Source of the DNA: Amphiscolops sp. MND2022
Lineage: Eukaryota
NCBI GenBank assembly: GCA_964187785.1
Contig: OZ076409.1
Coordinates: 44,890,001-44,954,000 of the forward strand
Reading direction: 5' to 3'
DNA length: 64,000 nt
Below, piece after piece: positions 15,001-57,093 of the stretch (position 1 is the stretch's first letter; every line of letters starts with the position of its first letter). Under the pieces are notes generated by a model. That model was not told the DNA's origin, searched no databases, and worked only from the letters and a program-made list of their open reading frames with translations. Position numbers and translations under genes: made by a program.

Positions 15001-16066
15001 CTGCCTTCTTCTCACGCGTGCCCAACTACTTCTAACGATCACACTGAGAGATTGATTGCGACCCACTGCATTCTTTCATCTGACAACTCGTTGAGTGCTC
15101 AACAGTTGAGGAGTAGGCTTCTTGATGCACCTTCTTAGGTGTCGTCTTGGGGGCAGAAACCTCAGGTTGGTCACCACTGGATTCCAATGCGCAGCTTCGT
15201 CTATCCATGAATGCAGTTAACTCCTTGAATGTTAACACATCTGTGCCGGGATGAGCCAATTCAAATTGCTTCCTTGTTTCAGCATCAAGTTTCTCCAGCA
15301 GCCAGTACACTAGTACTGCATCCCATTGATTGGCAGGAAGCCTCAAGGGCTTGCAAATGTTCGTTCGTCGATTCAAACAGTTTTTGCATCTCGACACTTG
15401 ACTCTCTCTTTATGGATGGTAGGACATGAATTGCAGCTAAGTGCGCCTTCACAATTGAACGCTTGTTGTTGTAGCACTCCTCTAACTAATGTCGTAGTTT
15501 GTATCATTGACCAACAGTGACAAAGCAATCTTAGCTGCATCACCCTTCAGTGACAATTTGAGGTATGATGGCTTCTCAACGTTGGCCATGTCAACTTTGC
15601 TGTCAACCAGTGTTGTGAAATGGTCCCAGAAAGAGACCCACTGTGTGTATTCATCGCTGAAGGAAGGAAGGGTCAGCTTAGGGAGCTTCGTGATCATACT
15701 GCCACTTGGACCTGCTGCGCCGCTCGTGCTTGGAGGCTGCATCGCCTTGATCTTGCCCAGACACCACTTCACTGCCCTTTCGGCTGCCAAGAACACGTCA
15801 GCAGCTTCAACCACATCGGCTAAAAACTCATCCTCGTCCTCAATGAGTAGTTGAATCTGAGAATCCAACGTCAGCATCTTGCGACGATCAATCAGGAACT
15901 CCAATGTGGCTTGGACATCCCCGAGGGCTCCACCGGCATGCCGGATTGCTGATGCCCGTCTTGTGAGGACGCCGCGATGAGCCCCTCTTGGTCGCTTGAG
16001 CTGAGGCAACTTCAACACACCACCAGAGTCGTCTGAACTGCCTGGACCATCTGCTGTTGACAACAC
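12044..16066 (-). pseudogene. BEL/Pao gag-pol, frameshifted, with most of RT deleted
   Basis: Gag KLPKLTLPSF...FWDHF, protease RALLDSGSQ, RT tail LRKWGSN, KRTLLSDVSKLFDPIG, RNase H FCDAS...PRLEL, integrase LHGG...CVTC, AVHLE, GLWEAALKSMK, RPVSKL. No YxDD segment between protease and RT tail. Confidence 0.93.
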
Positions 16067-19000: not shown

Positions 19001-21306
19001 TTGTCAAATGCGACACTTTTCATTGGTTCCAATTGTTTCAAGTTAATGGATTGAGAAGGTACATTACTTGCGATTGAGTTCAGCACTAGTGCTGTCACTG
19101 GCAGTTTTTAGGACCAATCATAAAATTGACTGACTCCTTTGCTGCTTGTTGCCGTCCACCAATCCCTGAGATCTTCACATAAATTGTTGAACGGGCGATG
19201 TTGAGTTTTGATGCTGCATCCGCTGTGATGAAGGATGTTTGAGACACTGAGTCCAGCAAGGCTCGAAACATCATTATCTTCCCGCTGCATCATCTATGCC
19301 AACCATTGCTGATGACAGAATCACAGAGGGACCACTGAATATTGCACCACTTGTCACACCACTTTGCTTCTCGACTGGACGATCAAAGTGCAGTCATGTA
19401 TGATGCCTCCCGTTGCAAGTGCGGCAGCTGAACTTCGATGGACAGACAGCCACAAAATGCCGCCCCATTAATGCACAGTTTGATCTTCCACGCCACTGCC
19501 TTCTTCTCACGCGTGCCCAACTACTTCTAACGATCACACTGAGAGATTGATTGTGACCCACTGCATTCTTTCATCTGACAACTGGTTGAGTGCTCAACAG
19601 TTGAGGAGTAGGCTTCTTGATGCACCTTCTTAGGCGTCGTCTTGGGGGTAGAAACCTCAGGTTGGTCACCACTGGATTCCAATGCGCAGCTTCGTCTATC
19701 CATGAATGCAGTTAACTCCTTGAATGTTAACACATCTGTGCCGGGATGAACCAATTCAAATTGCTTCCTTGATTCAGCATCAAGTTTCTCCAGCAGCCAG
19801 TACATAAGTATTGCATCCCATTGATTGGCAGGAAGCCTCGAGTGCTTGCACATGTTCGTTCGTCGATTCCAACAGTTTTCGCATCTCGACACTTGACTCT
19901 CTCTTTATGGATGGTAGGACTCGAATTGCAGCTACGTGCGCCTTCACAATTGAACGCTTGTTGTTGTAGCCCTGCTCTAACTTTCGCTTCGCAATGTCGT
20001 AGTTTGTATCAGTGACCAACAGTGACAAAGCAACCTTAGCTGCATCACACTTCAGTGACAATTTGAGGTATGATGGCTTCTCAACGTTGGCCATGTCAAC
20101 TTTGCTGTCAACCAGTGTTGTGAAATGGTCCCAGAAAGAGACCCACTGTGTGTATTCATCGCTGAAGGAAGGAAGGGTCAGCTTAGGGAGCTTCGTGATC
20201 ATACTGCCACTTGGACCTGCTGCGCCGCTCGTGCTTGGAGGCTGCATCGCCTTGATCTTGCCCAGACACCACTTCACTGCCCTTTCGGCTGCCAAGAACA
20301 CGTCAGCAGCTTCAACCACATCGGCTACAAACTCATCCTCGTCCTCAAAGAGTAGTTGAATCTGAGAATCCAACGTCAGCAACTTGCGACGATCAATCAG
20401 GAACTCCAATGTGGCTTGGACATCCTCGAGGGCTCCACCGGCTTGCCGGATTGCTGATGCCCGTCTTGTGAGGACGCCGCGATGAGCCCCTCTTGGTCGC
20501 TTGAGCTGAGGCAACTTCAACACACCACCAGAGTCGTCTGAACTGCCTGGACCATCTGCTGTTGACAACACGTCGAGGTCACCAATGTTTCGGGGTAGCT
20601 CTCAAGCTTGGCAAGTTTGGCACCAGTGTGAATTTCAAAGAGCTCGAGTCGAGGGAAGGGAAAGTTGAGGGTTTGATCGGAGCCACCTTGCATTTGGAGG
20701 AGATGAGGATTGAGGATACGATGTCATCTGTGACTGACACCAGATAGACACAGGCACCATAAACTTTTTCCGAGGCATCACAGAAGACTTGCAAGGATGC
20801 TTCGTCGTACAAGTGGGTTTGCAGCACCCTCTGGGGTATCTTGAGTTGTGATAGCGAGCTCATGTCATCTTTCCAGTTTGTGTATGCCCGTGACACATCA
20901 TCTGGAACTGCATCATTCCACTCAATATCCAGCTGCCAGCAAGACTGAATGATGACCTTGGCTACTACGAGAACTGGGGCTATGAGGCCAATTGGATCGA
21001 AAAGCTTTGAAACATCGCTGAGTAAAGCTCGTTTGGTAATGGTTGAAACATACTCACTACAACATGCATACACGAAGTGATCCTCTAGAGGATGCCACGT
21101 CAGTCCCAGTGTTTTGATTTGATGATTTTGTTGTTGATTTCATAGGCCTTACCAGCTTCCTGAAGGTCTTTCGGAAGACGAGTGACCAGTTGGGGTTCGT
21201 TGCTGCCCCACTTGCGTAGTGGGAGACAATTTTTATTGAGGGTTTCAATCAGATTGTCAACGACACTTTTCATTGGTTCCAATTGTTTCAACATAATGGA
21301 TTGAGA
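13875..21306 (-). repeat. Tandem array, ~3.3 copies of a ~2252-bp BEL segment (LTR tip, PBS, gag, protease, RT tail, RNase H start)
   Basis: Equivalent ORFs at 16057/18309/20562 and 15032/17274/19527. Each junction joins RNase H sequence to a ~23-bp LTR remnant. Confidence 0.95.
16064..16079 (-). promoter_or_regulatory. Primer-binding site, tRNA-Trp type (repeated at 18316-18331 and 20569-20584)
   Basis: TGGTGACCTCGACGTG one base after the LTR end. One mismatch to the complement of the eukaryotic tRNA-Trp 3' end. Confidence 0.8.
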
Positions 21307-21389: not shown

Positions 21390-24300
21390 AAGACTGGGAG
21401 GGGACCTACTAAGTCGACTTCCATGAGGTCTTCTGGTCCAATTGACGGATCGTAAATTTTATAAAGAAGTGGTATTAGTTGCGATTTTTTCATTTTTTTT
21501 GGGTGTGGCAAAAGTTTGCATCCATCCATTGTTTTTTAGACTGCTAAATAGGGCGAATATTACCGCTTTTGAAGCTCACAATGCTTTTTCATGGATCCAC
21601 GGTGTCCCTGTATTGGGTTGCTATGTAGGGTCCTGATTATGTCCTCTGTGCATTTTTCAGATACTACAATTTGTTTATGGGTTTTGAGACGGTTATTGTT
21701 AAACATTTTTCTGTTTGACACGCTGTTGAAAATTTCGAGGCGTATGAGGCGTTTAGGTAGTTTTTGGAAGAGGGGGTTCATTGGATTGACTGGGTATTTG
21801 GGTGTTTCATCACCTTTTAAGATGTGGATCATTCGTTGAGTGTCGTTGTTATCCTTTTGTAGGACTACTAAATCAACCTTCCTCTCGGGGGACATCGTGT
21901 TTAAAACCGTTGTACAGGACGCTGTCTTTTGGATGAATTTGTAGTGTTTGGTTTCATCGCCTTGTAGTTGTAGTTCAAGCTGAGAGATGTCAAAATTTTA
22001 GAATGGATGGAACATCATCCAATTTTTATCAACAACGGTGAGAGGGTTGACTTTTTTCTTGTTCTCATCGGACACAGTGACTTAGTTTCGACATGCTATT
22101 TGCATCGTTATCTCGTCTTTTGTGCGTGTTTTGCGCATTGAATCACCAGAGGAGAGAAAACATCTGGTTCGTCTTCCTCATGTTTCGGGTGTTTTTGATG
22201 CAATGTCAATTTCAAAATGGTAGTGAATCATTCAATTTCAAGTGTTAGGCCAATTATTCTTTCTTCAAGCCTTATCTCTAGTCGAGAGAGGTAATCAGCT
22301 GCTGGATTTTCGACGCCTGGTATGTGAGGTAATATGGAGTTGAATTGAATGTTTGCTCACAAAAATTCCACAGTGACGACATTGACGGAAGAATGTCTTT
22401 TGTTTGCAAAAATCTACTTACGGCTTTGTTGCCTGTAATTACGATGATAGGTTCTTTAGCTCGCCACTTTTGCCGTGTAGATTGACACACATGTACATTT
22501 CGATTACGAACCGACGTCCACTCGTCAAAGCTGACAGAAAACGCTTCGCCGTCGCTGAGCTTTGATCGTATAGTCTCTTTGAGATCCTGTTGCACGCTTG
22601 CTCGAATTGATAGATTGTACTGTCGCACAGTAAGATGGTCAGTTGGAATCTTCGTAAATCCACGTGCGACTAAGCCTTGGCGAGTGTCGTGGGATGTAGC
22701 AATCATATGGAGCGAAATGCCATCTTTAGCAGCCATGCAAGAGAGAACCTGAAAACTGAATTTCATCCGCTTTTTATGTTTTTTTGACGTAGAAATCTTA
22801 CAATTTGCGCGTGTCATTACCCTGAGCTAATGAATGACCAGATGTTATGCTGTACAGTGTACTTACAAGAGGAAGTGTATCTCGCTCAATCGACTCAGAA
22901 ATTGTAGCTTGGAGTTTCTTTTTCTTCGATGCGTTGAATGAAGGTGACGCTGACGGACCGCTCTCCCTCGATACTGTCAATGTCTCAAATGCTGCACCGT
23001 GCTTTGCCTGGAGAGGCGACTTTAACATTTTTGTGCTACCTCCAAGCGTTTCCACCTGCTTCGCACAGTGTGAACAATTTGCGGTATCCCTGTCCAGTCG
23101 CTCGTAATGCACCCAGGATACAGATACACTCATATCTGAAAAATACCCAAATTGTAACAACTTTTGCAAGTTGTCAGCGGTCTCAGGATCCCGCGGTGTA
23201 AATTCCGGGATCTCGGGACCTCAAAATTACTCGGAATCCCGGGAGTTCGGGAACCCGGGATCCCAACACTACTGAGCAGCATCTGCGACAGTTGTAACTA
23301 AATAGTTTTGTTCTCCGTAGTCGTTCTTGATGAGGTTGTTTATTCGTCTTAAATCTACTAAAATCCTCAGTCTGCCGTCCGGATTTCTTTGCGCTAAAAA
23401 GTGTGCGGAAGTGTTGTAACCTGGAGTTTTCGTTGGATGTCGTTATCCTTTTGTATGGCTACTAAGTCAACCTCCTTCTCGGGGGACATCTTGTTTAAAA
23501 CCGTTGTACTTGACGCTGTCTTTTGGATGAATTTGTAGTGTTTGGTTTCTTCGCCTTGTAGTAGTAGTTCAAGCTCAAAGATGTCAAAATTTTTGGATGG
23601 ATGCAACATCCAGTTTTCATCGTCAACGGTGAAAGGGTTGACTTTTATCTTGTTCTCATCGGACACAGTGACTTAGTTTCGACATAATATTTGCATCTTT
23701 TTCTCGTCTTTCGCGCGTGTTTTGCGCGTTGCATCACCGGGAATGAAAAAGTCTGGTTCGTCTTCCTCATGTTTATATGTTTTTGATGCAATGTCATTTT
23801 CATTATGGTAGACTGGTATTGAATCATTCAATTTACCTTGTGTTAGGCCTTTTACTTTTTCTTCAGGCCTTATCTCTAGTCGAGAGAGGTAATCAGCTGC
23901 TGGATTTTTGACGACTGGTATGTGAGTTAATCTGAAGTTGAATTTCAAAATTTGATCACAGAAGTTACCCGGTGACGAAATAATGTGTTTTGCTTTAAAA
24001 AATCTACTGAAGGTTTTGTTGTCTGTCAAAAGGATGATCGGTTTTTTAGCACCCCACAGAATGAGCCAAATTGATCGGACTTGAAGTGCTTTGCCAAAAT
24101 TCTTTCGCATATATCGTAAAAGTCATTAGGTTTCCTTGGAACTTCTCTGAGCCAAAGGCGACTGGGCGTATGTTTTTATGTTACCTGAGCCTTTTTCAAG
24201 ACTATCCTCTATGATTAAAACTTATCCTGCTGAGTTTTCGCTAGCGTGGCACATAATGACAAGTTGTTTGTCTGGCAGGGACATATTTAGAGAGACTTTA

Positions 24301-25220
24301 GTTGCTTTTAAGAGAGCTTCGTTATTTCTAGTATCAAGTTTTTGTGACTTTGTTTGAGTTTAAGCGGTATGTCCTCTTTGTTCAAGGTGTGTAAAACTAC
24401 GGTTTTATTGATTAATCTAGGGATGTAGGATCGACGAAAAATGACGAATCCGAGGTAGCGTTGAAGTGCTTCGACAGAATTTGGTAGTGTCAGTTTTCGG
24501 ACGCAGTCGGTGACCCGTTTTCGATTGGTGCTATTCCAGCAATTGAAATCGTTCAGCCTTTGTTTTCGATTTTTTGTTGGCCGAACTCACATTTGCTCAT
24601 GCTCAGTTTGAGTCTTGCTTTGCGGAGTTGTTGAAGACAAGTTCTAGATTTTCCATGGATGTCTCTAGGGTATGTGCCGCAATACCTATGTCGTCTAAGT
24701 ACTGTGCGCAACGATCGGTTTTACGAGAAGGTCTAGGTATTCACGAACTGCACTTGTAAAGACTGACACTGAGCGGTTTAATCCCTGAACCAACCCCAAG
24801 AATGCAAGTATGCGCGAAGTAAAGTTAAAGGATAGTAATTGGATGGATTGCTCCTCTGCTATTGGAAGACAATGGTAGGCCTAAGAACAATGTAACGTGC
24901 AAAAATATTTTTTCCTAGCCGTGTGCTGAGCAGCATCTGCGACTGTTGTAACTGGATGGTTTTGTTCTCCTTAGTCGTTTTCGAAGAGGTGGTTTTTCCA
25001 GGTGAAGTCTACTAAAATCCTCAGTTTGTCGTTTGGATTTCTTTGCGCAAAAATGGCCGAGGAATATTTACGATGAGGAAGTGTAGTATTGATCCCATAT
25101 TCTTGCATCAATGCAAGCTCGACAAGCAAATCGTACTTCGGGTTTGTCTGAGTTGGGATACGTTGCGAATAGACTGGTTTGTCAAGTGGCAATATGACTT
25201 TGACTTTAAAATTGGTGTTT
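21390..25220 (-). pseudogene. Decayed, rearranged Ty3/Gypsy pol (RT, RNase H, integrase start)
   Basis: KLRILVD, AQYLDDI (~24690), TDNK, NPAADYLSRL, LHSNPIQGHRG, EVDLVGP. Internal duplications 21840-22460 vs 23430-24050 and 23272-23395 vs 24926-25048. Confidence 0.9.
22497..23271 (-). mobile_element. 5' fragment of a hAT transposon with BED finger and one intron
   Basis: Terminus TAGTGTTGGGATCCCGGG with CCCGGGA subterminal repeats. WVHY...CSHC...KH motif. In-frame GT-AG intron 22749-22866, then SFDEWTS. Confidence 0.85.
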
Positions 25221-25222
25221 TT

Positions 25223-28200
25223 GGGGCACGAGTTTTGCGAGATGCCCAAATGGTGACGTTTTCTTTGGGGCACGAGCTTTGCGAGATGCTCATATGGTGA
25301 CGTTTTTTTTTCGCAGATTTCGTGACATGTGCCAATTTTTCAAACTTGTGAGCCAAATTTCGCAAAACACAGAACAGATACGGACACCATGTTTTCGCTA
25401 AAAAATGCGCAGGATCATAGGCTACATTTTTGTCGAGAAAAGTTTTCGAAAAAATTTCGGCTTCATGGGTTTTTTCCAAAAGAATTTTTGAAAAAAACGC
25501 TATTTTTGACTGTTTTTCATCTTTGATCCCCTATATCTCAGAACTGAGACCGAATACAGGGAACATGTTTTCGTGAACTGTACAAGCGTTTTGTAGGCTA
25601 CATTTTGGTCGAAAAATGACGTCAAAGTTTTGTTTCATACTTGGTGTTTTTTCGGACAAAAAAGGACAAAAAAATCGAAAAACTTTTTCTCATTGGTAGC
25701 TCGTATTTCTCAAAACTGATGAAAGATACAGAAACCGTTCTCCTTCGAGGAGAACAGCATTGATATAGGCTAATTTTTGGACCAACAAAGTTATCGTCAT
25801 CAAGTATGACGCCTTCGTTTTTTTGCCAAAAAACTTCAATTTTTTTTAAATTCTTGGTTCTTTTTTACTTGAGCTCGTATATCCCATGACGGAGACCAAA
25901 CATGAGATTCATGGTTTCGTTAATTTTACGAAGCCTATGTAGGCTACGTTTTAGGTTAAAAACGTTGTCGAAGTTTTTTCCGCTCTGGTTTTTTTAGCAA
26001 ATAGAGTAATGAAAATATATTTCTGAATTTTTTCCACTTTTTTCTAACTTGTAGCTAATTTTTCTCAGAACTGAAAATAGATACGAAAACTATTCTTCCT
26101 CACCAAGTGAGGCAAGTATGTAGGATATTTTTTGTACTATCAAAAATTCCGTCATGAAGTATGACGCCTTGGCGTTTCTGCCAAAAATACATTTTTTCAT
26201 TTTTCTCAAAAAAATTTTCCTTCTTTTTAGTTCTTTCATCAAAATATCCTCATCTGAGACTGGATAAGTTCACAAGGTTGTGGGCCCTGGAACACAAAAA
26301 ATTTGTAACACCTTCTGCAGACCATTGAACGATTCTGCTCGTGCCCAAGCGCGACATGCCGTCGCGCTTGATTTTTTTCGCAGATTTCGTGACGTGCCAA
26401 TTTTTCAAACTTGTGAGGCAAATTTCTCAAAACCCAGAACCGATACGGACACCATGTTTTCGGTAATAGTTGCGCAGGATCCTAGGGTTCAATTTCGCTG
26501 AAAAAAATTTTCGAAAAAACTCGGCTTCATGGGTTTTTTCCAAAAGAATTTTTGAAAAAAACGCTATTTTTGACTGTTTTTCATCTTTGACCCCCTATAT
26601 CTCAGAACTGAGACCGAATACAGGGAACATGTTTTCGTAAACTGTACACGCGTTTTGTAGGCTACATTTTGGTCGAAAAATGACGTCAAAGTTTTTTTTC
26701 ATACTTGGTGTTTTTGGACAAAAAAGGACAAAAAAAATCGAAGAAATTTTTCTCATTGGTAGCTCATATTTCTCAAAACTGATGAAAGATACAGAAACCG
26801 TTCTCCTTCGAGGAGAACAGCATTGAAATAGGCTAATTTTTGGACCAACAAAGTTATCGTCATCAAGTATGACGCCTTCGTTTTTCTGCCAAAAAACTTC
26901 AATTTTTTTTTAAATTCTTGGTTCTTTTTTACTTGAGCTCGTATATCCCATGACGGAGACCAAACATGAGATTCATGGTTTCGTTAATTTTACGAAGCTT
27001 ATGTAGGCTACGTTTTAGGTTGAGAACGATGTCGAAATTTTTTCCGCTCTGGATTTTTTTAGCAAATAGAGTAATGAAAATATATTTCTGATTTTTTTCC
27101 AATTTTTTCTAATTTGTAGCTAATTTTTCTCAGAACTGAAAATAGATACGAAAACTATTCTTCCTCACCAAGTGAGGCAAGTATTTAGGATATTTTTTGT
27201 ACTATCAAAAATTCCGTCATGAAGTATGACGCCTTGGCGTTTCTGCCAAAAATACATTTTTTCTATTTTCTCAAAAAAATTTTCCTTCTTTTTAGTTCTT
27301 TCATCAAAATATCCTCATCTGAGACTGGATAAGTTCACAAGGTTGTGGGCCCTGGAACACAAAAAATTTGTAACACCTTCTGCAGACCATTGAACGATTC
27401 TGCTCGTGCCCAAGCGCGACATGCCGTCGCGCTTGATTTTTTTCGCAGATTTCGTGACGTGCCAATTTTTCAAACTTGTGAGGCAAATTTCTCAAAACCC
27501 AGAACCGATACGGACACCATGTTTTCGGTAATAGTTGCGCAGGATCCTAGGGTTCAATTTCGCTGAAAAAAATTTTCGAAAAAACTCGGCTTCATGGGTT
27601 TTTTCCAAAAGAATTTTTGAAAAAAACGCTATTTTTGACTGTTTTTCATCTTTGACCCCCTATATCTCAGAACTGAGACCGAATACAGGGAACATGTTTT
27701 CGTAAACTGTACACGCGTTTTGTAGGCTACATTTTGGTCGAAAAATGACGTCAAAGTTTTTTTTCATACTTGGTGTTTTTGGACAAAAAAGGACAAAAAA
27801 AATCGAAGAAATTTTTCTCATTGGTAGCTCATATTTCTCAAAACTGATGAAAGATACAGAAACCGTTCTCCTTCGAGGAGAACAGCATTGATATAGGCTA
27901 ATTTTTGGACCAACAAAGTTATCGTCATCAAGTATGACGCCTTCGTTTTTCTGCCAAAAAACTTCAATTTTTTTTTAAATTCTTGGTTCTTTTTTACTTG
28001 AGCTCGTATATCCCATGACGGAGACCAAACATGAGATTCATGGTTTCGTTAATTTTACGAAGCTTATGTAGGCTACGTTTTAGGTTAAGAACGATGTCGA
28101 AATTTTTTCCGCTCTGGATTTTTTTAGCAAATAGAGTAATGAAAATATATTTCTGATTTTTTTCCAATTTTTTCTAATTTGTAGCTAATTTTTCTCAGAA

Positions 28201-31200
28201 CTGAAAATAGATACGAAAACTATTCTTCCTCACCAAGTGAGGCAAGTATTTAGGATATTTTTTGTACTATCAAAAATTCCGTCATGAAGTATGACGCCTT
28301 GGCGTTTCTGCCAAAAATACATTTTTTCTATTTTCTCAAAAAAATTTTCCTTCTTTTTAGTTCTTTCATCAAAATATCCTCATCTGAGACTGGATAAGTT
28401 CACAAGGTTGTGGGCCCTGGAACACAAAAAATTTGTAACACCTTCTGCAGACCATTGAACGATTCTGCTCGTGCCCAAGCGCGACATGCCGTCGCGCTTG
28501 ATTTTTTTCGCAGATTTCGTGACGTGCCAATTTTTCAAACTTGTGAGGCAAATTTCTCAAAACCCAGAACCGATACGGACACCATGTTTTCGGTAATAGT
28601 TGCGCAGGATCCTAGGGTTCAATTTCGCTGAAAAAAATTTTCGAAAAAACTCGGCTTCATGGGTTTTTTCCAAAAGAATTTTTGAAAAAAACGCTATTTT
28701 TGACTGTTTTTCATCTTTGACCCCCTATATCTCAGAACTGAGACCGAATACAGGGAACATGTTTTCGTAAACTGTACACGCGTTTTGTAGGCTACATTTT
28801 GGTCGAAAAATGACGTCAAAGTTTTTTTTCATACTTGGTGTTTTTGGACAAAAAAGGACAAAAAAAATCGAAGAAATTTTTCTCATTGGTAGCTCATATT
28901 TCTCAAAACTGATGAAAGATACAGAAACCGTTCTCCTTCGAGGAGAACAGCATTGAAATAGGCTAATTTTTGGACCAACAAAGTTATCGTCATCAAGTAT
29001 GACGCCTTCGTTTTTCTGCCAAAAAACTTCAATTTTTTTTTAAATTCTTGGTTCTTTTTTACTTGAGCTCGTATATCCCATGACGGAGACCAAACATGAG
29101 ATTCATGGTTTCGTTAATTTTACGAAGCTTATGTAGGCTACGTTTTAGGTTAAGAACGATGTCGAAATTTTTTCCGCTCTGGATTTTTTTAGCAAATAGA
29201 GTAATGAAAATATATTTCTGATTTTTTTCCAATTTTTTCTAATTTGTAGCTAATTTTTCTCAGAACTGAAAATAGATACGAAAACTATTCTTCCTCACCA
29301 AGTGAGGCAAGTATTTAGGATATTTTTTGTACTATCAAAAATTCCGTCATGAAGTATGACGCCTTGGCGTTTCTGCCAAAAATACATTTTTTCTATTTTC
29401 TCAAAAAAATTTTCCTTCTTTTTAGTTCTTTCATCAAAATATCCTCATCTGAGACTGGATAAGTTCACAAGGTTGTGGGCCCTGGAACACAAAAAATTTG
29501 TAACACCTTCTGCAGACCATTGAACGATTCTGCTCGTGCCCAAGCGCGACATGCCGTCGCGCTTGATTTTTTTCGCAGATTTCGTGACGTGCCAATTTTT
29601 CAAACTTGTGAGGCAAATTTCTCAAAACCCAGAACCGATACGGACACCATGTTTTCGGTAATAGTTGCGCAGGATCCTAGGGTTCAATTTCGCTGAAAAA
29701 AATTTTCGAAAAAACTCGGCTTCATGGGTTTTTTCCAAAAGAATTTTTGAAAAAAACGCTATTTTTGACTGTTTTCCATCTTTGACCCCCTATATCTCAG
29801 AACTGAGACCGAATACAGGGAACATGTTTTCGTAAACTGTACACGCGTTTTGTAGGCTACATTTTGGTCGAAAAATGACGTCAAAGTTTTTTTTCATACT
29901 TGGTGTTTTTGGACAAAAAAGGACAAAAAAAATCGAAGAAATTTTTCTCATTGGTAGCTCATATTTCTCAAAACTGATGAAAGATACAGAAACCGTTCTC
30001 CTTCGAGGAGAACAGCATTGATATAGGCTAATTTTTGGACCAACAAAGTTATCGTCATCAAGTATGACGCCTTCGTTTTTCTGCCAAAAAACTTCAATTT
30101 TTTTTTTAATTCTTGGTTCTTCAAGTAATTTTTACTTGAGCTCGTATATCCCATGACGGAGACCAAACATGAGATTCATGGTTTCGTTAATTTTACGAAG
30201 CTTATGTAGGCTACGTTTTAGGTTAAGAACGATGTCGAAATTTTTTCCGCTCTGGATTTTTTTAGCAAATAGAGTAATAAAATATATTTCTGATTTTTTT
30301 CCAATTTTTTCTAATTTGTAGCTAATTTTTCTCAGAACTGAAAATAGATACGAAAACTATTCTTCCTCACCAAGTGAGGCAAGTATTTAGGATATTTTTT
30401 GTACTATCAAAAATTCCGTCATGAAGTATGACGCCTTGGCGTTTCTGCCAAAAATACATTTTTTCTATTTTCTCAAAAAAATTTTCCTTCTTTTTAGTTC
30501 TTTCATCAAAATATCCTCATCTGAGACTGGATAAGTTCACAAGGTTGTGGGCCCTGGAACACAAAAAATTTGTAACACCTTTCGCAGACCATTGAACGTT
30601 TCCGCTCGTGCCCAAGCGCGACATGCCGTCGCGCTTGATTTTTTTCGCAGATTTCGTGACATGTGATAATTTTTCAAACTTGTGAGGCAAATTTCTCAAA
30701 ACCCAGAACCGATACGGACACCATATTTTCGGTAATAGTTGCGCAGGATCCTAGGGTTCACTTTCGCTGAAAAAAGTTTTCGAAAAAAATCGGCTTCATG
30801 GGTTTTTTTAAAAGAACTTTTGAAAAAACGCTATTTTCAACTATTTTTCATCTTTGATCCCCTATATCTCAGAACTGAGACCGAATACAGGGTCCTTGGT
30901 TTCGTAATTTGTTCAAGCGTTTCAAAGGCTACATTATGGTTTAAAAATGACGTCAAAAGTTTTTTCATACTTGGTGTTTTTGGGCAAAAATAGGACAAAA
31001 ATTTTTCGAAAATTTTTTTCTCATTCGTAGCTCATATTTCTCAAAACTGATAAAAGATACAGAAACCGTTTTCTTTCGAGAAGAGCAGCATAGATATAGG
31101 CTACTTTTTTGACCAACAAAGTTATATTCATCAAGTATGAAGCCTTCGTTTTTCTGCCAAAAAAAATTCTTGGTTCTTTTTTACTTGAGCTCGTATATCT

Positions 31201-31680
31201 CATGACCGAGACCAAATATGGGGTTCATGGTTGCGGTAACTTTACGAGGCTTATGTAGGCTACGTTTTAGGCTGAGAGTGATGTCGGATTTTTTTTCGCT
31301 TTGGAATTTTGTATGCAAATAAAGTAATGAAAAACGTTTTTCTGAATTGCTTCCATTTTTTCCAATTCGTAGCTGATGTTTCTCAGAACTGAAAATAGGT
31401 ACGAAAACCATTTTCCCTCACAAAGTGAGGCAAGTATGTAGGCTACTTTTTGTACTATCAAAGTTTCCGTCATGAAGTATGACGCCTTCGGGTTTCTGCC
31501 AAAAAAACAATTTTTCATTTTCCTTCTATCTTTTTGGTTCTTTCATCAAAATATCCTCATCTGAGACTGGATAAAGTCACAAGGTTGTGGGCCCTGGAAC
31601 ACAAAGAGTTTGTAACACCTTCTGCAGAACATAAAACGTTTCTGCTCGTGCCCAAGCGGGACATGCTGTCGCGCCTATGT
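25223..31680 (+). repeat. Six-unit 1065-bp tandem array derived from a HINE-like element (family C), inserted in Gypsy RT
   Basis: Period 1065 (ORFs 26239/27304/28369/29434). Two 5' ends GGGCACGAG (at ~25223 and ~25267). Six 3' ends CTCGTGCCC plus stem-loop GCGCGAC-ATGCC-GTCGCGC. Flanks rejoin to Gypsy FDIGQ/NTNFKVK without TSD. Confidence 0.92.
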
Positions 31681-34600
31681 TGTCCTATGTCGAACCCATG
31701 CCTAGCAAAAAAGTTGTTGTTTTTGACTAGTAGTTCTTCAACTTGTCGTTCCTGTGCTGTATTGAGAAGAGAATTGTCCCAGTTGAAATTTTTCAAAAAT
31801 CTCATCCTTTCTTCATCCGGTTTTGGGCCTCTAGATTCTCTTATTCTCGCAGAGCAAGGATTTCATCGAAAATTCGACGTTCAATTTTGTTCCATTTGTG
31901 TGCGTCACTGCTTGTTCCAGGTGTTGGGTACCACTTTGTGAGTTTTGTTTCCGGATTAACAAAAAGTTGGTTAATCACTGTTTCTGCTTCTTCAGGAAAT
32001 TTAGAAAGTAACTTGAGGTGTTCTGGTGGCATTGGTGTTAAGTTAGCTGCCTGGTGAGGAGTTGCAATAGGAAAACACTGCTGTTTTTGTTGGCTTCTAG
32101 TGTGAAAGTATGCTTATTCCGATTAGTAACTTGAATCATCGTTTTTCAATCCGTTATGTCAACTATTACTGGTGAGACGAGAAGGTAGGTTTTGCGCATA
32201 AGTACAGGGGTACGTTCGTTCGACTGTACCTGTTGTTTGCGTTATATCGGAGTTACAGCAAACTGGTAACATCATTTGATGGTGTGGCGCAATGACAGTT
32301 TTTTGACGTGAGTACAGATCGATAAGGCCAGTTTTGAATTTTTTGCTGTTGTCGCACTTGTATTGACATCATGTGGTTTGGAATGTGGACTACGTGGTTT
32401 GGAATGTCACGATTTACGGAATACTTTTCAAAAAACTAATTGCCTATTAGAATGGTACCTATTGTCGGACGTACTCGGAACGTTTCTTCAAACACTTTTC
32501 CTGATCTGTAGAAGCGAGCTCAACTTGTTTTCTAATCAGTTCGAGGTTACCGTTCGTGATTAGAACCCTGAAATTTGACGGGAGGTGTTCTATCAAAGGC
32601 GCTTCGGGGAAGGCGTGCAAAAGTTTGCTTAGTTCCACTTCTGAAAGGGCGCTTTCAATAGGACCGGTTTCTAGTAGACCTTGGTTTTCGTACTTATCAA
32701 ATTGCAACGAAACGTACATCTGACGTTTTTTGTTTAAACGTAAAGTAAGAGGGAGTTCATCGCTAAAAATTTTAAAGTTTTGGAGAAGGACTGGTTTAGG
32801 ATTTTCCTGAGCTGATTCATGGAGTCGGTTGTTGTCTGAGAAGTCATCGGAAGGATGCCGTGTTGAGTCGTTTTTCAACTTATTTCCAGCGTACTTGCTC
32901 GCGTCGAAGCGTCTGTGTGGAAATTCATCGCATTTCCATCGTTGTCGTCTGACAATGGTTGGGAACCATTTGTCGTCATCGCTGTCCTCTTGGTAATTGT
33001 GATGTCATCGCATCTGGTCGGGAGGAGTGATGATTTGTTTAGTCGGTCAGGTCCCTTCGAAGGCTGCCTTGTCTTCGTTGGGTTTTAGGGAGAAACGTGA
33101 TAGAGTTGTGTTTGCAGTCGTTTGTGTGCGCATTTTTTTGTTTGCGGGTTGAGATCGTGGCCTTATTGAAAAACTTGCTCATCGTCTGAGTGATTTTCGT
33201 CCTCCCTTTCGGCGGAGCATTCCATTTGGCTAAGTGGTCCTTGCTGTTTTTAAACACCCTTTTTTGATGTCGTCTCTGTTTTCCGCATTTTTTTCCTTCG
33301 CCGAATGGAGGGCTGGTTGATTTGGGGGTTCTTTGATAGCATTCCCGGGCCAACCGGTCAGTGTAACGGCAGATTTGGCACACGTGTTTTCGCTTCTATT
33401 TTGGTTTCTCTTCAGGGCGTTTTTAAGGTTCAACATCGTCTTCCTTCACTGTCTTGCTATGTTCTACGCGTAGTCGTGAGCGGCACTTCTGTTTGCGCAG
33501 TCCAGTTTTGCCGCAATAGAAACATTGGCCCTCGAATTTCGTCTTCTTCGTGTTTCGTGGTCATTGTTGTTTCCTGGTTAATCCTTGTCAACCGCCAGTT
33601 GATGCTTGCTTGAATGGCTGTGCTCTGATTGTTGGTTGGAGAAGGTGCTAAAATTGAAATTTTCTCATCAGGTGAGCTTTGATCTCCTCCGGTGAGCAGG
33701 CCTCTTTGTTTGCCATGGTCAATACTTGTTGTGTCTCTACCGGTAATTTTGCCGAACAAGAATGTTTTGATGTATGTTACCGCGTTTGTTTGCGGTTTTC
33801 TGGAAATTTTTTTACGAATTCTCCGAAGTGCCTCGTTGGTTGGGTCGTATTTTGCCTTGTTCCATTAATTCCTCGCTATTGAATAAGTCCTCTCTGGCGA
33901 ATTCCTTCCGGAATTACGCAAGGACTTCCGTCAGCGTTGTCGGTTAATTTTCGAGATGGTCCATATTCGATGGCTTCTTCTCTCAGTAAGCTCTGTATGA
34001 AAGAAATCTTGTTTTCCGTGATCGTGTTGACGAATGGTCGGAAATGGTTGAGTAGGAGGTGTTCAAAATCATTGAAATTATCTTTGAGACCACAGAAAAT
34101 CGGCACATGCGTTTGTAGAAGTTGTGTGTTGGTGGAATAGTTTGAATTTGACGTGGTAGATCATGTATCGCATTGAGCGGTTGATCTGTATCCAAATTTC
34201 CGGAGGGTGTTCGTAGCGGGTATTCGAATTCATGGTCAGAGTCGCTCCGGATTCGGGGAGTAATAGGAGCCGTACGTCTTGTTTAGTTGTCTCCTGTCAC
34301 CTTGTCGACACGCTTCTGGGTACGTGAGCCAGAGGCTCGAGGAGCGGTCTCTTCCTCTGATCGAGAGATAAATTGTTGAGTTAAGGTCGCCAGTAAGGTT
34401 TTAATCTCGGTCGTGTCATTTTGTGACTTAACGATTTGATGATTAACTTCTGCTTGGGAAGACGAGTTTCTTTCGTCAAGATGTGTTTCAGGTAAATTTG
34501 AGTCAGTATCTTCGTTTGCTCTATTGATCCAGTCAGAATTCATGTTTAGTTGGCTTTTCGATGAATTTTGTATGAAGGATGACTTAAGAATGACTTTTCC

Positions 34601-34815
34601 ACTTCGAAGTTTCCGAGGAGAAACTACGCTCATGTGATTCAGAAAAGAAGAGTTTTGTAGATTATAGGAGTTGAATCAGGTTTTGAGGTAGTAAGTAAGT
34701 GTTGAGTTTTGTAAGCAAACTACTGGTTAGTACGGAACAAAGCAAGTTAATGAGCACCTTCAGAGCTACTGGTGTCACGTCCAATTTCCAACCTTGTCAC
34801 CTAAACGTGACAAGA
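31681..34815 (-). pseudogene. 5' half of the same Gypsy element: leader, gag with two degenerate zinc knuckles, protease, pre-RT region
   Basis: MSVVSPRKLRSGK start, CFFCGK and CQICRY knuckles, LLETGPIESAL protease-like motif, FARHGFDIG. Many frameshifts. Confidence 0.85.
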
Positions 34816-37470
34816 CGCAATTATCGTACTTTTCTCATCATCGTTTGGCTGGTGTAATGAGGTCATAATTGTCGCCCGTTTTAACTCACCAACATCGAAA
34901 GTAAAAAATCGTACTATAATGGATTTGTATAATTGCTCCAAAAGCAGAGCTGCATATGAAGTAAAGGAGTCGGCTCAGTTCTTTTTCTACCTGACTCGCT
35001 CGAATTCCAGTCATAAGAATTTTTTGAAATTGCACACATCGAGCAATATTATGGTATAGAAACCACTGTTCGTTGGCCATTTTGCCGCTAATTTTGGCTA
35101 TGTTTCAACGTTTTGGCTACGGTTTTTGTTCAAACATAAAGTGAGAGGGAGTTCATCGCTAAGAATTTTAAAGTTTTGGAGAAAGACTGGTGTAGGATTT
35201 TCCTGAGCTGATTTATTGAGTTGGTTGTTGTCTGAGAAGTCATCGGGAGGATGCTGTGTTGAGTCGTTTTTCATCTGATTTCCAGCGTATTTGCTCGCGT
35301 CGAAGCGTCTGTGTGGAAATTCATCGCATTTTCATCGTTGTCGTCTGACAAGGGTTGGGAACGATTTGTCGTCATCACTGTTCTCTTGGTAATTGTGATT
35401 TCGTCGCATCTGGTCGGGAGGAGTGATGATTTGTTTAGTCGGTCAGGTCCCTTCGAAGGCTGCCTTGTCTTCGTTGGGTTTTAGGGAGAAATGTGATAGA
35501 GTTGTGTTTGCAGTCGTTTGTGTGCGCATTTTTTTGTTTGCGGGTTGAGATCGTGGCCTTATTGAAAAACTTGCTCATCGTCTGAGTGATTTTCGTCCTC
35601 CCTTTCGGCGGAGCATTCCATTTGGCTGAGTGGTCCTTGCTGTTTTTAAACACCCTTTTTTGATGTCGTCTCTGTTTTCCGCATTTTCTTTCTCCGCCGA
35701 ATGGAGGGCTGGTTGATTTGGGCGTTCTTTGGTAGCATTCCCGGGACTAATGCTCAGTGTAACGGCACTTTTGGCACACGAGTTTTTGCTTGTACTTTGG
35801 TTCCTCTTCAGGGCGTTTTTAAGGTTCAACAGCGTCTTCCTTCACTGTATTGCTATGTTCTACGCGTAGTCGTGAGTGGCACTTCTGTTTGCGCTGTCCA
35901 GTTTTGCCGCAAAAGAAGCATTGGCCCTCGAATTTCGTCTTCTCTGTGTTTCGTGGTCGTTGTTCTTTCCTGGTGAATTCTTGTCCACCGCCAGTTGATG
36001 CTTGCTTGAATGGCTGTGCTCTGATTGTTGGTTGGAGAAGGTGCTGATATTGAAATTTTCTCATCAGGTAAGCTTTGATCTCCTCCAGTGAGCAATTCTC
36101 TTTGTTTGCCATGGTCAATACTTGTTGTGTCTCTACCGGTAATTTTGCCGAACAAGAATGTTTTTATGTATGTTACCGCGTTTGTTTGCGGTTTTCTGGA
36201 AGTTTTTTAGGAATTCTCCAAGTGCCTCGTTGGTTGGGTCGTATTTTGCCTTGTTCCATTAATTCCTCGCTATTGAATAAGTCCTCTCTGGCGAATTCCT
36301 TCCGGAATAATTTTCGAGATGGTCCATATTCGATGGCTTCTTCTCTCAGTAAGCTCTGTATGAAAGAAATCTTGTTTTCCGTGATCGTGTTGACGAATGG
36401 TCGGAAATGGTTGAGTAGGAGGTGTTCAAAATCATTGAAATTATCTTTGAGACCACAGAAAGTCGGCATATACGTTTGTAGAAGTTGTTTGCTGGTGGAA
36501 TAGTTTGAATTTGACGTGGTAGATCATGTATCGCATTGAGCGGTTGATCTGTATCCAAAGTTCCGGAGGGTGTTCGTAGCGGGTATTCGAATTCATCGTC
36601 AGAGTCGCTCCGGATTTGGGGAGTAATAGGAGCCGTACGTCTTGTTCAGTTGTCTCCTGTAACCTTGTCGACACGCTTCTGGGTACGTGAGCCAGAGGCT
36701 CGAGGAGCGGTCTCTTCCTCTGATGGAGAGATAACTCGTTGAGTTAAGGTCGCCAGTAAGGTTTTAATCTCGGTCGTGTCAGTTTGTGACTTAACGATTT
36801 GATGATTAACTTCTGCTTGGGAAGACGAGCTTCTTTCGTCAAGATGTGTTTCAGGTAAATTTGAGTCAGTATCTACGTTTGCTCTATTGATCCAGTCAGA
36901 ATTCATGTTTAGTTGGCTTTTCGATGAATTTTGTATGAAGGATGACTTATGAATGACTTTTCCACTTCGAAGTTTCCGAGGAGAAACTACGCTCATGTGA
37001 TTCAGAAAAGAAGAGTTTTGTAGATTATAGGAGTTGAATCAGGTTTTGAGGTAGTAAGTAAGTGTTGAGTTTTGTAAGCAAACTACTGGTTAGTACGGAA
37101 CAAAGCAAGTTAATGATCACCTTCAGAGCTACTGGTGTCACGTCCAATTCCCAACCTTGTCACCTAAACGTGACAAGACGCAATTATCGTACTTTTCTTA
37201 TCATCGTTTGGCTGGTGTAATGAGGTCATAATTGTCGCCCGTTTTAACTCACCAACTTCAAAAGTAAAAAATCGTACTATATTGGATTTGTATAATTGAT
37301 CCAAAACCAGAGCTGCATATGCGGTAAAGGAGTCGGCTCAGTTGTTTTTCTACCTGACTCGCTCGAATCCCAGTCACAAGAATTTTTTGAAATTGCACAC
37401 ATCGAGCCAAATTATGGTATAGAAACGACTGTTCGTTGGCCATTTTGCCGCTAAATTTGGCTATGTTTCC
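32725..37470. repeat. Direct tandem duplication of ~2.4 kb (Gypsy gag, leader, flank and end of a HINE)
   Basis: ORF pairs 33457/35853 and 34283/36646. Junction at ~35110-35125. Confidence 0.93.
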
Positions 37471-37804
37471 CACATCCCAGCCATACGATTTTGATGCCAT
37501 TGTACAAATAGTACCCTTCTCTGGAGTTAAATGACTGTAGAAAATTTCGTTCCAACCGTATCGACAGTTATTGAGAAAATCGAAACAAGAAAAATATCTG
37601 TTTTTCGGGCTAATTTTGGCTATGTTTGTCACATCCAGTCATACGATTTTGATGTCTTTGCACACGCAAAGGCCACTTTGGTTGTAGAATGACTGTGCAA
37701 AACTTCATTAAATTGTATGGAATGTTTTTGAGAAATTTGACATTTTCGTTGGAAGGTCGGAAAAAAAGGTCACGATTGCATTAGTCGAAATTTTTTCAGA
37801 CTCC
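37303..37804 (-). mobile_element. HINE-like element, family B (partial copy ~34940-35110; another copy ~55292-57292)
   Basis: Palindromic end AGTCGAAATTTTTTC(A/C)GACTCC, opposite subTIR GGAGTCGG next to small hairpin CAGAGCTG, two diverged ~155-bp internal repeats. Confidence 0.6.
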
Positions 37805-38017
37805 CAAAATTTGAATGGGGACCATGTGAAGAAAATTTTCGAAGTCTCATTATGCCAAAAAACTAAAGGGTGGCCCTTTGTGATTTTTTAACAACCATTC
37901 TGTTGCAAAATACTTTTAAGTTTAAAGAGGGGGACCCTTTGGAGACATTAAGAAAATATCGAAAAAAAACGAAAAACTAGAATTTCGAACAGTCTCATAG
38001 CGCCGAAAACTTTACAC

Positions 38018-38148: not shown

Positions 38149-38498
38149 GAAGTTGAACAAAAAAGTGAACCATTCGGAGTGAATTGAAAAAAACTAATAA
38201 TCGGGTAAATAAACCCCACTGTAATAGTCTGGTACTTTTCTTGTGCCCGAATTGTTAAGGTTATTCCCGAAAGGTTAAGGTTATATGCATTTTGCAAAGA
38301 CAAAAGCAAAGAAAATACTGTTTTAAAAGTACCATATTAGAACTCTGCATAGTTGCATGAACTAGTTCTCAGATCTGTAGATTTTTTTCGAAGGATCCAG
38401 ATACTTCTGTGTCAAACAGTTGTTTGAAGGCCGTCTAATTTTTTCTACAGGTGTACTAGCAGAATATACAAAAATACTGCCATGCAATTGCGCTTTTT

Positions 38499-38955
38499 AC
38501 TCGGCGCATTTTAGAAAATGTGCCCGACTCTTACAGTGGGTAGTTTTTTTCTTTTAGACGCGTAAGGTCCACTTTTTTGTTCAACATCGTCAAACCTCAA
38601 CAACTTCGAACCTCAACAACTCGAACCTCAAAAGCGCGTCCAAAACGAAAAGAAGAAACAAAACAGACGTTCAGAACCTCGAAAACACACTAAGGATCCC
38701 CCCAAAGCCCCACTTTTTTTTCGGTACTGAGACTTTTTGGATTGCACCAAAGGGCCCCCCCTTCATTTGTTTCGACATTTTCCAACACAATGGATGTCAA
38801 AAAATCCCAAAGGCTTCCTTTCCATTTTTCGGCACTGTGACACTGTTCACAAATCTTTTTTGGGAAATTTTTTCAAGTTTCCAAAGGGCTCCCCCCCACC
38901 TTTTACAATTTTGAGTCTTAGATATAGCGCCGACTTTGGCCGTTCTCGGCTTGTT
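38499..38955 (+). mobile_element. HINE-like family A copy
   Basis: Same 5' hairpin. 3' AGCGCCGACT plus variant stem-loop GCCG-TTCT-CGGC. Confidence 0.75.
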
Positions 38956-42419: not shown

Positions 42420-42695
42420 AAAAACAATTACTGACTATTTTCATGTTTGCATCTGATATTTGAAGGACATGCCACATTTTGGGTTGTTTAATTCAAATAA
42501 GTAAGCAAAATTATTGTTTTGGATATAACGTAAACCTGGATACAACGTAGATTGGGCCGACCGCCCAGGGAGGTACGTTATACCCAGGTACGACTGTTGT
42601 GAATTTAGCGGTAAAATCTGTGATAGCAGAATCTTGATCGAAACATGTCTTTTCATTTGAAGGATTGCGTGGATATGAAGTAGAAAGTGTACTAC

Positions 42696-54645: not shown

Positions 54646-55478
54646 TTACAAAGCACTTTCAGAATAAATGCTAGATATGAAAGTTGAAGAACGGCGCCAC
54701 GGCTACAAAAATGATTGAGGAAGGTTTTTCTTTTGAGAATTTTCCGAGTTTTGAACAGTTTCTGAGTTATTGAAAACGTTCTAAAATTCCTCGGAATACT
54801 GTGTGAAATTACTTCGATTACTTACTGTGCAAAATTTTGCCTCGATTTCAAAACAAAAAATACCCGTGTATTACTGATCAAAATTTGGGTGACTTTTTGT
54901 AGAATGAATATATCACATGATTTCGCGTCATGAAAATTTTCGTTACCCAAGTCGACTGTTCTTAGCTTTTTGGTACCCAAGTGTAGTTGTATATGCATTA
55001 GATGAACGTTGATAAGACACAAGATGAGAACAGTCCAAGTCAGCGGCCGCTGAAGTCTAAAGAACAAAGTCTTTTGAAAATGTTCAGGGACAATTATTGA
55101 GGACAATCTTACAAGGCCGAAAAATATTTGCAAGAGGCAGTAAAATTGTTATTCAAAAAGAAAGGAATAAAAAAACATTCAATGTTTCCGCAACTGTAAA
55201 TAACGTGGAAACGACAAGACGTCCACGACTGGCAAATTGATGGAATCAGCTTTTATCAGCTTTCTAATAGTCACTGCTGACTTGCAGCAATAAACCATCT
55301 GCGGTACAGGAGTTGGCTTAGGTCTTTTTCCTTCTGACTAGCTCGAATACCAGTCATACGAGTTTGATGCCATTGTACATATAGGACTCTAATATGGTGT
55401 GGAAGGACTGTAGAAAATTTCGTTCAAATCGTATGGAGAGTTTGAGAAAATAAAAAAAGTCGAAAAATGGCTGTTTTT

Positions 55479-57093
55479 AGTCGGCGCTTTTCCATTAAGG
55501 GAAAAATGCCCGACTATAGCAGTGACTGTTTTAAGTCGGCGCTTTTCTAGGGAAAAGTGCCCGACTCTTACAGTGGCTAGTTTTTTAGTCGGCGCTTTAT
55601 CCTTTTAAGGAAAAATGCCCGACTATAGCAGTGACCTTTTTTTTTCTTCAGCCTCACACTGATCGGTCCACTTTTTAGAAACACTCCTGAAACCACCCAA
55701 GGCGCCCAGTCCGGCAAATAAGGCCAAGGCAAATTCAGTGCAAACCTTTTTCAAGGTAACCTACAAAATCGGACGTGACTACAGAGTCCCCCCTTTCGAT
55801 TTTTCGATTTTTTTTCGGCACTGTGCGACTTTTTTCGAAAATTTTTCTGTCTCCAAAGGGTCCCCCCTTTCATTTTGTACTTTTTTAACGTAATCTACAA
55901 AACCGTCCGAGGCTAAAGGGTCCCCCCTTTTGATTTTTTTCTGCACTGTGCAACATTTTCCTTAAAAATTTTTTTTCGAAAATTTCAAGTTTTTTTTCGA
56001 AAAAAATGTTTTGCGCTTTTTGAGCCTTAGATATAGCGCCGACTTTAGACGTTCTCGTCTTGTTTTCTTTTTTTTTCGTCAGACCACAGACCTCATCGCG
56101 TATGTACCACTTTTTACAGACTTCACTCTCGCTCACATGTACTCGTCAGTACTCGGTTTACGGTGAACCCAGCGGTAACGGGTTCGAGTCCTTGCTTTAG
56201 CCAGAACTTTTTCGAGCAATTCTTTTCGGCACTGTGCGACTTTTTTTCGAATTTTTTTTTGTCGTCAAAGGGTCCCCCTTCAAGTTTTTTGATATTTTGC
56301 AGCAAACTGAAGTTTCAAAAAGCCCGAAGGGTCCCCCTTTCTAGTTTTTCGGCACTATGAGATTGTTTCAAAAATCTATTTTTCGTTTTTTTTTCGAAAA
56401 TTTTTCCAAAAATTTTTTAAATATTTTTAAAATAATGTCTCTAAAGGGTCCCCCCTCAACTTTTTTGATATTTTGCAACAGACTGGATTTTCAAAAAGTC
56501 AAAAGGGTCCCCCCTTTAACAATTTTTTTTTAAATGCGCTTTTTTGAGCCTTAGATATAGCGCCGACTTTAGACGTTCCCGTCTTGTTTTTTCTTCAGAC
56601 TACAATCCTCACACTGATCGGTCCACTTTTTAGAAACAATCCTGAAACCACCTAAGGCGCCCAGTCCGGCAAAGGGGCCAAGGCAAACTTAGTGCAAAGA
56701 GTCCCCCCTTTCGAATTTTTTCGGCACTGTGCGACTTTTTTTCCAATTTTTTTTGTCTCCAAAGGGTCCCCCTCTTCATTTTTTACTTTTTTAACGTAAC
56801 CTACAAAACCGGCCGAGGCTAAGGTTCCCCCCTTTTGATTTTTTTCGGCACTGTGCGACTTTTTTCGAGAATTTTTAATGTCCCCAAAGGGTCCCCCTTT
56901 GAGTTTTTTGTTATTTTGCAACAGAATGCATGTTTGGAAATCAAAAAGGGTCCCATCTTTTACATTTTTCGGCACTGTGCGACATTTTCCGAAAGAAAAA
57001 ATTTTTCGAAAATTTCAAGTTTTTTTCAATAAAATTGTTTTGCGCTTTTTGAGCCTTAGATATAGCGCCGACTTTAGACGTTCCCGTCTTGTT
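55479..57093 (+). mobile_element. Three nested family-A HINE-like elements
   Basis: 5' ends at 55479, 55534, 55587. 3' ends at ~56064, ~56588, ~57093. Confidence 0.88.

Follow-up and report, generated by a model that had tools for sequence, protein, structure and literature searches.

A tandem array of a Helentron-like element occupies positions 25220-31679 of the window analyzed here, a 64-kb stretch of the Amphiscolops sp. MND2022 genome (contig OZ076409.1, 44,890,001 to 44,954,000, forward strand; coordinates below are those of the window). The insert, ~6.5 kb long, is made of two 44-bp 5′ ends followed by six bodies (U1 to U6), each with a 3′ subterminal inverted repeat (subTIR) and a hairpin (Table 1). 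A first-pass annotation of this DNA had noted two stacked 5′ ends against six body and 3′ ends, and the motif positions and unit starts confirmed this count. The 5′ motif GGGGCACGAG was found at 25223 and 25267 only, forming a 44-bp tandem pair, while the 3′ motif CTCGTGCCCAAGCG occurred six times (26338, 27403, 28468, 29533, 30605, and 31645). At the array edge, a 7-bp direct repeat (31674-31690) makes the final U6 bases uncertain. We consider it probable that one element landed in the T-tract following the 5′ end of a relative with which it shares 86% identity, and that the resulting hybrid was then multiplied by successive in-register exchanges.

The array element and its insertion site

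Ts flank the outer and inner junctions on both sides. The subTIR at 25268 is a 10-bp perfect inverse of 26337-26346, which lies ~35 bp from the 3′ end. The 3′ stem-loop of U1 has a 10-bp stem and was more stable than expected (z -3.97, 0/200 shuffles as stable); the U6 hairpin is damaged by a mismatch (z -1.36), and the inverted-repeat pairing predicted for the outer 5′ end was not above shuffles (z -0.72). Internally, the element carries five degenerate subrepeats of ~175 bp that are 46-68% alike. The longest stop-free stretch in U2 was 104 codons, as read without a Pfam search. U1 to U5 terminate in the hairpin plus TTGA, and the ends of the element are T-runs with subTIRs. A canonical Helitron (HLE1) begins with 5′ TC, ends with 3′ CTRR, and inserts between A and T; the array element does not show these terminal features.

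The element is instead built like a non-autonomous Helentron of the HINE/DINE-1 type, of which it is a putative member. Here and below, statements on published systems refer to the available excerpts of the cited papers. HINE/DINE-1 elements are non-coding, with subTIRs, a 3′ stem-loop, central repeats, and Ts at the ends, and they insert into T-rich targets with no target duplication (PMC4067079, PMC2374699); the array element resembles them in each of these respects. Their subTIRs are subterminal by 2-4 nt at the 5′ end and by ~38-60 bp at the 3′ end, and in DINE-1 alone an inverted repeat of the 5′ end is nested with the subTIR. The perfect subTIR of HINE is 12-15 bp long (PMC4067079), compared to 10 bp in the array element, and no autonomous partner or relative turned up in the sequences searched. 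No Rep or helicase was found among the 19 open reading frames (ORFs) of at least 150 aa in the window, and an Rfam search of the element gave no match. The family had no further copy elsewhere in the 64-kb window. Against metagenome contigs, which like the prokaryote and viral collections need not include the host animal, the 5′ motif hit 0 loci and the body motif 10 (longest match 37 bp, none extending); we took the latter as chance. The body motif hit 0 loci among viral contigs, and the 3′ motif hit 80 prokaryote and 62 viral-contig loci (GC at least 0.43, longest match 38 bp), also taken as chance.

The insert interrupts a decayed Gypsy-type pol. The left flank has 327 homologs, with 150 among the matches listed; a scan of six of them recovered the reverse transcriptase domain in 6/6, RNase H in 5/6, and integrase in 4/6. 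When the flanks were used as separate queries, 68 of the 150 matches listed matched both. In 62 of these 68 homologs one flank follows the other without gain or loss of a codon, and in the remaining six they overlap by 1-7 residues. Because the flanks adjoin in 62/68 homologs, 25220-31679 is a single insertion site without codon-scale target duplication, the absence of duplication being resolved at the codon level. Two other decayed pol copies, 83% alike, lie nearby (21832-22467 and 23429-24057), together with a second reverse transcriptase fragment (23272-23433); this arrangement suggests older duplications or nesting among Gypsy elements.

Table 1. Coordinates of the array, its flanks, and the second Helentron-like family
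Feature	Position	Strand	Description
Left flank	24974..25219	-	Degraded Gypsy-type pol: beginning of its reverse transcriptase region
Right flank	31680..31820	-	Directly preceding part of the same Gypsy-type pol
Outer 5′ end	25220..25263	+	Leading Ts, subTIR GGGCACGAG, short inverted repeat, T-tract split by the inner element
Inner 5′ end	25264..25311	+	subTIR GGGCACGAGC, own 9-T tract at 25303-25311
U1	25312..26378	+	Body of the presumed inner element: five degenerate ~175-bp subrepeats, 3′ subTIR, hairpin, Ts
U1 3′ parts	26337..26346; 26346..26370	+	subTIR; 10-bp hairpin stem, then Ts
U2	26379..27443	+	Hybrid: head U6-type, tail U1-type
U3	27444..28508	+	Hybrid
U4	28509..29573	+	Hybrid
U5	29574..30645	+	Hybrid: private 8-bp insertion and four substitutions near the 3′ end
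U6	30646..31679	+	Body and 3′ end of the presumed outer element: hairpin mismatch, last bases unlike U1-U5
First exchange tract in U2	26521..26539	+	19 bp, identical in U1 (25457-25475) and U6 (30790-30808)
Probable second exchange interval in U2	27266..27379	+	Alignment columns 904-1017, breakpoint picked post hoc
Second-family solos	10103-10735, 38494-38955, 54067-54645	+	Single 5′ and 3′ end
Second-family solos	41832-42424, 60162-61055	-	Single 5′ and 3′ end
Triple nest, second family	55474..57093	+	Three stacked 5′ ends, then three bodies; not amplified

Mosaic units and their amplification

The first and last bodies are distinct variants, as had been noted before, with an identity of 86.0%. 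The four middle units are 99.25-99.91% identical to one another (U2, U3, and U4 are apart at 1-2 sites only), and their identity is 96.0-96.6% to U1 and 87.0-87.4% to U6. We aligned U1, the middle majority, and U6 and mapped the diagnostic sites, a check that had been set beforehand. The alignment held 160 variant events, 144 of them informative. Before the best breakpoint, 16 events were U6-type and 3 U1-type; after it, 11 were U6-type and 114 U1-type (Fisher p 1.4e-11), and none of 5000 permutations gave an equally strong breakpoint. This placed one crossover, the switch from U6-type to U1-type, in alignment columns 146-164, a single 19-bp tract that is identical in U1 and U6. The sequence flanking the crossover on both sides is 86-87% homologous.

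U1 and U6 diverge evenly along the unit (head 13.9%, tail 13.7%), whereas the divergence between the middle units and U6 rises from 4% to 14%; the middle unit is therefore the recombinant, and the converse possibility, that U1 is the recombinant, was rejected. The mosaic is inexact, since the middle head differs from U6 at 6/142 sites and the middle tail from U1 at 19/890. The earlier description of the middle units as near-identical chimeras with a last-type head and a first-type tail thus holds for the single switch, but the hybrids are imperfect, lying 2-4% off each parent. A last-type head joined to a first-type tail is the polarity that, from the geometry, would be expected when the segment between direct repeats is duplicated.

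In the tail of the alignment, nine events are found in the middle majority only, and at eleven others U1 is the odd one out. Because of the nine changes private to the middle consensus, a single burst directly from the dimer is ruled out; they are most simply explained by one hybrid that persisted for some time before multiplying. Compared with U1, U2 to U4 show 22-24 events in columns 165-903 and 0 in columns 904-1081. In the latter columns, U5 differs from both U1 and U2-U4 at four sites (Fisher p 0.003, with the breakpoint chosen post hoc). U5 is set apart from U2-U4 by 8-10 events in all, an 8-bp insertion included. On these alignments, the hybrid and U1 likely underwent a second exchange close to the 3′ end, in which case U5 would be the older hybrid. 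One site reads A, T, A, T in turn across U2 to U5, which would fit a two-unit amplification step.

When the units were rephased, the interior ones (R2-R4) were 0.1-0.2% apart, and the edge units R1 and R5 were 1.1-1.9% from R2-R4 and 2.8% from each other. The array therefore shows one hallmark of a satellite, a homogenized interior with divergent edge units; it is not a long, high-copy array but six units over 6.4 kb at one known locus, and the name satellite, used for it at first, overstates it. Unequal exchange had also been proposed as what amplified the chimeric unit. In-register multiplication remains the best reading, with more than one event; unequal crossover, homology-guided template switch, and gene conversion would leave the same signature at this locus and cannot be told apart from its sequence.

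The number of units rests on the assembly sequence, and the 1-2 sites between U2, U3, and U4 are what one would see if the middle units had been over-expanded or haplotypes merged in assembly. We regard such an artefact as highly improbable: no two of the six units are the same, nine changes shared by the middle units are lacking in U1 and U6, and U5 stands off from U2-U4 with its insertion. U1, one unit of the U2-U4 type, U5, and U6 at least must be real.

The close similarity of U2-U4 would likewise fit a rolling-circle concatemer or an excised circle, produced by body-body exchange or by replication of the element, that was copied and then integrated. If a circle were cut out between U1 and U6 at the 19-bp tract, its sequence would be exactly that of the hybrid, and Helitron circles and tandem arrays have been reported (PMC5148889; Xiong 2016 via PMC12628747). 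However, head-to-tail circles would carry a 5′ end in every unit, and the array has two 5′ ends and six 3′ ends; the arrays of Xiong type are the reverse of ours, with many 5′ ends and one 3′ end (PMC12628747). In addition, no fewer than two separated events are required by the nine private changes and the phased shift at columns 904-1017. A circle is accordingly a poor candidate for the array as a whole, although it could still explain the final recent step.

The 2-4% distance of the middle unit from both parents is also compatible with a composite assembled elsewhere, or with the middle unit being a third free subfamily, in either case moved in by a transposition that bypassed the internal 3′ ends. 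Movable nested Helitrons with multiple termini have been proposed in maize and Fusarium (PMC3288121, PMC5148889). Here, such a transposition would need to skip five intact internal hairpins. The switch of type falls at the same phase on the two edges of the array, as a single local dimer would produce. An origin of this kind is very unlikely.

Nested insertion and the second Helentron-like family

Two repeats of different size, one of 44 bp at the 5′ end and one of 1065 bp that spans the body, break in the same post-5′ T-tract. One insertion accounts for this shared breakpoint; the alternative requires two coincident duplications. The two 5′ ends, outer and inner, differ at 4/44 sites, a number that would be improbable were they as young as the hybrid (P 0.02 at 2.4%) and is unremarkable at 14%. 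They appear too different for a slip as young as the hybrid and are compatible, judging by these few sites, with two subfamilies. The differences between U1 and U6 are moreover clustered along the unit (p 0.003).

Nested insertion at the array is supported most strongly by another Helentron-like family of the window, unrelated to the first. When the window was scanned for the structure of Helentron-like ends, only the array locus came up; the second family was recognized by reading the sequence. Its members have a 5′ subTIR in a hairpin (z -3.5, -4.1), a T-tract, internal repeats of ~116 bp, and a 3′ subTIR with a 5-bp stem. The window holds eight 5′ and eight 3′ ends of this family, distributed over five solos with one of each (10108, 38499, and 54072 on the forward strand; 42419 and 61050 on the reverse) and one triple nest. 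In the triple nest, the 5′ subTIRs lie at 55479, 55534, and 55587 and the 3′ subTIRs at 56036, 56560, and 57065. Both inner junctions lie in the T-tract behind the previous 5′ end, and a paralogous copy of the repeat around the nest, at about 37474-37809, has the two flanks joined without interruption. The parts of the nest are 81-91% alike in their 5′ ends and 46-81% in their body starts, so the nest does not represent a recent duplication.

The sequence shows the anatomy of the locus, the mosaic with its polarity, and the single insertion site. From these we infer the order of events, which 5′ end belongs to which body, and the pathway of recombination as follows. An outer element X would first sit in the Gypsy site. 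A relative Y would then enter the T-tract of X, 44 bp in, giving the order 5′X-5′Y-bodyY-3′Y-bodyX-3′X with two direct repeats spaced by 1.07 kb. Within the identical 19-bp tract, an exchange would duplicate the tail of Y and the head of X, giving U1-M-U6, where M is the hybrid. M would age and gain its roughly nine private changes; a second exchange of M with U1 in the last ~170 bp, followed by recent steps, would yield the four middle units. The earlier idea that an element had inserted into itself is thus kept as nested insertion, with the correction that the host was an 86%-identical relative. Insertion into the T-tract behind another 5′ end is backed by the Gypsy flanks and by the triple nest; the order and the 5′-body pairing are part of the scheme just given.

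The main competitor to nested insertion is an old duplication in place, in which the body and 3′ end of an element with a doubled 5′ end, native or acquired later, were duplicated between the two T-runs, drifted by 14%, and were amplified by exchange, with no second insertion. Several observations favor this course or otherwise weigh against nesting. The Gypsy host is decayed, with several stops and frameshifts, and its age would have allowed a large part of the 14% to accumulate in place; U6 has a damaged hairpin. Helitrons with a double 5′ end that transpose as units have been published (PMC5148889). Solo copies of the array family were not seen in the window or in the prokaryote, viral, and metagenome collections, and a native double 5′ end is possible. 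Differences between U1 and U6 fall at 23/217 conserved subrepeat columns and 95/586 columns elsewhere, a depletion that is not significant (p 0.056). The second crossover is based on four sites with a post hoc breakpoint, and gene conversion would leave the same pattern. In the triple nest, the solo at 10103 matches the middle 5′ end at 98%, but the bodies of the two are only 56% alike, so that the pairing there is unconfirmed. Finally, three other kilobase-period tandem arrays lie within 38 kb (1-7353, 13879-21306, and 32723-37469; period 2.2-2.5 kb), meaning that the region duplicates kilobase segments of any type, and tandem duplications with non-homologous junctions are common nearby. Unlike the array studied here, the two neighboring arrays with visible ends have no homology across their junctions. 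Duplication in place would require two independent duplications breaking in one T-tract, the differences between U1 and U6 are clustered, and the second family shows genuine nesting in such a tract alongside solos with a single 5′ end. We therefore judge it unlikely.

Taking the two families together, three of the ten Helentron-like insertions in the window lie at a post-5′ T-tract. The six non-nested insertions of the second family have 2-5 Ts on the right side. For the 2/8 insertions of this family that targeted a same-family 5′ tract, the chance was 3e-5 to 4e-3 for T-runs of 2 to 5 or more, 0.02 for T-runs of at least 6, and 0.35 for T-runs of at least 8, under a simple model with amplified copies masked and small numbers. 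One may speculate, with some doubt, that Helentron-type elements seek out, beyond an ordinary preference for T, the T-tract that follows the 5′ subTIR of a resident relative, perhaps because of transposase bound at the resident 5′ subTIR, and so routinely build Russian-doll direct repeats that in-register exchange turns into arrays of hybrid monomers. Homing of this kind, if true, would provide rolling-circle elements with a general path to satellites, and its searchable signature would be k stacked 5′ ends and n > k 3′ ends. The array itself is small and most likely a neutral by-product in a repeat-rich region, with no evident function.

The window contains further repeats. The neighboring array at 13879-21306 (reverse strand) comprises ~3.3 tandem units (period ~2250 bp, 94-98% alike) within a BEL/Pao element; its unit joins a DUF1759 (gag) piece to a Peptidase_A17 piece, with no extended junction homology. 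The array at 32723-37469 is a tandem duplication (period ~2390 bp, 95.8% alike) whose junction at 35107-35118 carries a short filler resembling nearby sequence, as in end-joining repair. At 1-9179, at least three units of 2449 bp, 97-98% alike, run past the window start; the abutting segment 7356-9179 is a 70-83% diverged relative of part of the unit, and this may be another array seeded by direct repeats. Direct repeats of 475 bp at 44464-50743 (97.5% alike, 5805 bp apart, enclosing a weak RVT_1 match at 46279-46764) probably mark a long terminal repeat (LTR) element. By eye, 59190-61375 is a likely hAT-type DNA transposon, with inverted ends and transposase-like coding, that is split by the second-family solo at 60162-61055. 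Small foldback-like elements with inverted minisatellite arms lie at 41097-41546 and 58224-58671. The only host-type gene match is an ORF at 52702-53292 (reverse strand) that matches the nuclear hormone receptor ligand-binding domain (PF00104, E 4e-15); together with the BEL/Pao and Gypsy elements, it points to an animal host.

Comparison with known systems

The passage from transposon to tandem array is usually inferred once the parents are lost. Here, both parents, both outer ends, and the target gene remain readable, one exchange point and probably a second are still legible, and an un-amplified precursor state is present in the same window in another family. Counts of stacked 5′ ends against 3′ ends separate this route from rolling-circle concatemers and from central-repeat expansion, and can be surveyed in long-read assemblies. 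The first exchange took place between copies ~12-14% apart, which bears on the homology required for such duplications. Each step of the route has precedent: self-insertion, dimer expansion, and a nested origin of tandem repeats have each been published, and these steps are less new than was implied at first. For nesting and amplification with mapped crossovers, we found no precedent in the full-text literature searched, which covers few subscription papers; the supplements of PMC5148889, which list copies with multiple termini, may hold closer cases. What is worth following is this combination in its preserved form, together with the preference that two families seem to show for the post-5′ T-tract.

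Helitron-derived arrays have been traced to internal repeats (PMC12001565, PMC8268682), and the known satellites of DINE-1 type arise from central repeats; the unit of our array is the entire body plus the 3′ end. The plant arrays of Xiong 2016, attributed to rolling-circle replication as summarized in PMC12628747 and PMC8268682, are similar in being tandem truncated Helitron copies and differ in having many 5′ ends and one 3′ end. A 2025 review covers rolling-circle arrays, hybrid MITEs (miniature transposable elements with inverted repeats), double insertion, and unequal crossing-over (PMC12628747); the available part of its mechanisms section does not contain the sequence of steps proposed here.

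Nested Helitrons have been described as a source of multiple termini (PMC3288121). The closest counterpart of the stacked 5′ ends is found in the Fusarium Helitrons FoHeli, whose short stacked 5′ termini were proposed to come from self-insertion (PMC5148889, PMC13342296), and a possible triple 5′-terminus case is mentioned in Metarhizium acridum (PMC5148889). The FoHeli 5′ ends are 31-85 nt long, compared to 44 nt here, and in both systems they are stacked by a proposed insertion behind the 5′ end of a relative. FoHeli, however, has several 5′ ends with one 3′ end and transposes as a composite, whereas our array keeps all of its 3′ ends, forms a complete nest, and has had its direct repeat amplified.

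In Drosophila, transposon dimers formed by double insertion can expand by unequal exchange (PMC5932611). As here, two insertions give an expandable dimer, and the tail-to-internal junctions in that system are possibly nested insertions. The Drosophila dimers consist of near-identical copies side by side at a duplicated target; our array involves an internal insertion, no target duplication, 86%-identical relatives, and a hybrid monomer without a 5′ end. For the maize tandem repeats CRM1TR and CRM4TR, nested insertion was suggested as the origin (PMC3648361), and they share with our array kilobase-size monomers from related elements and recombinant monomers. They derive from LTR retrotransposons, however, and their origin is suggested rather than preserved, whereas the array described here retains both parents and both outer ends.

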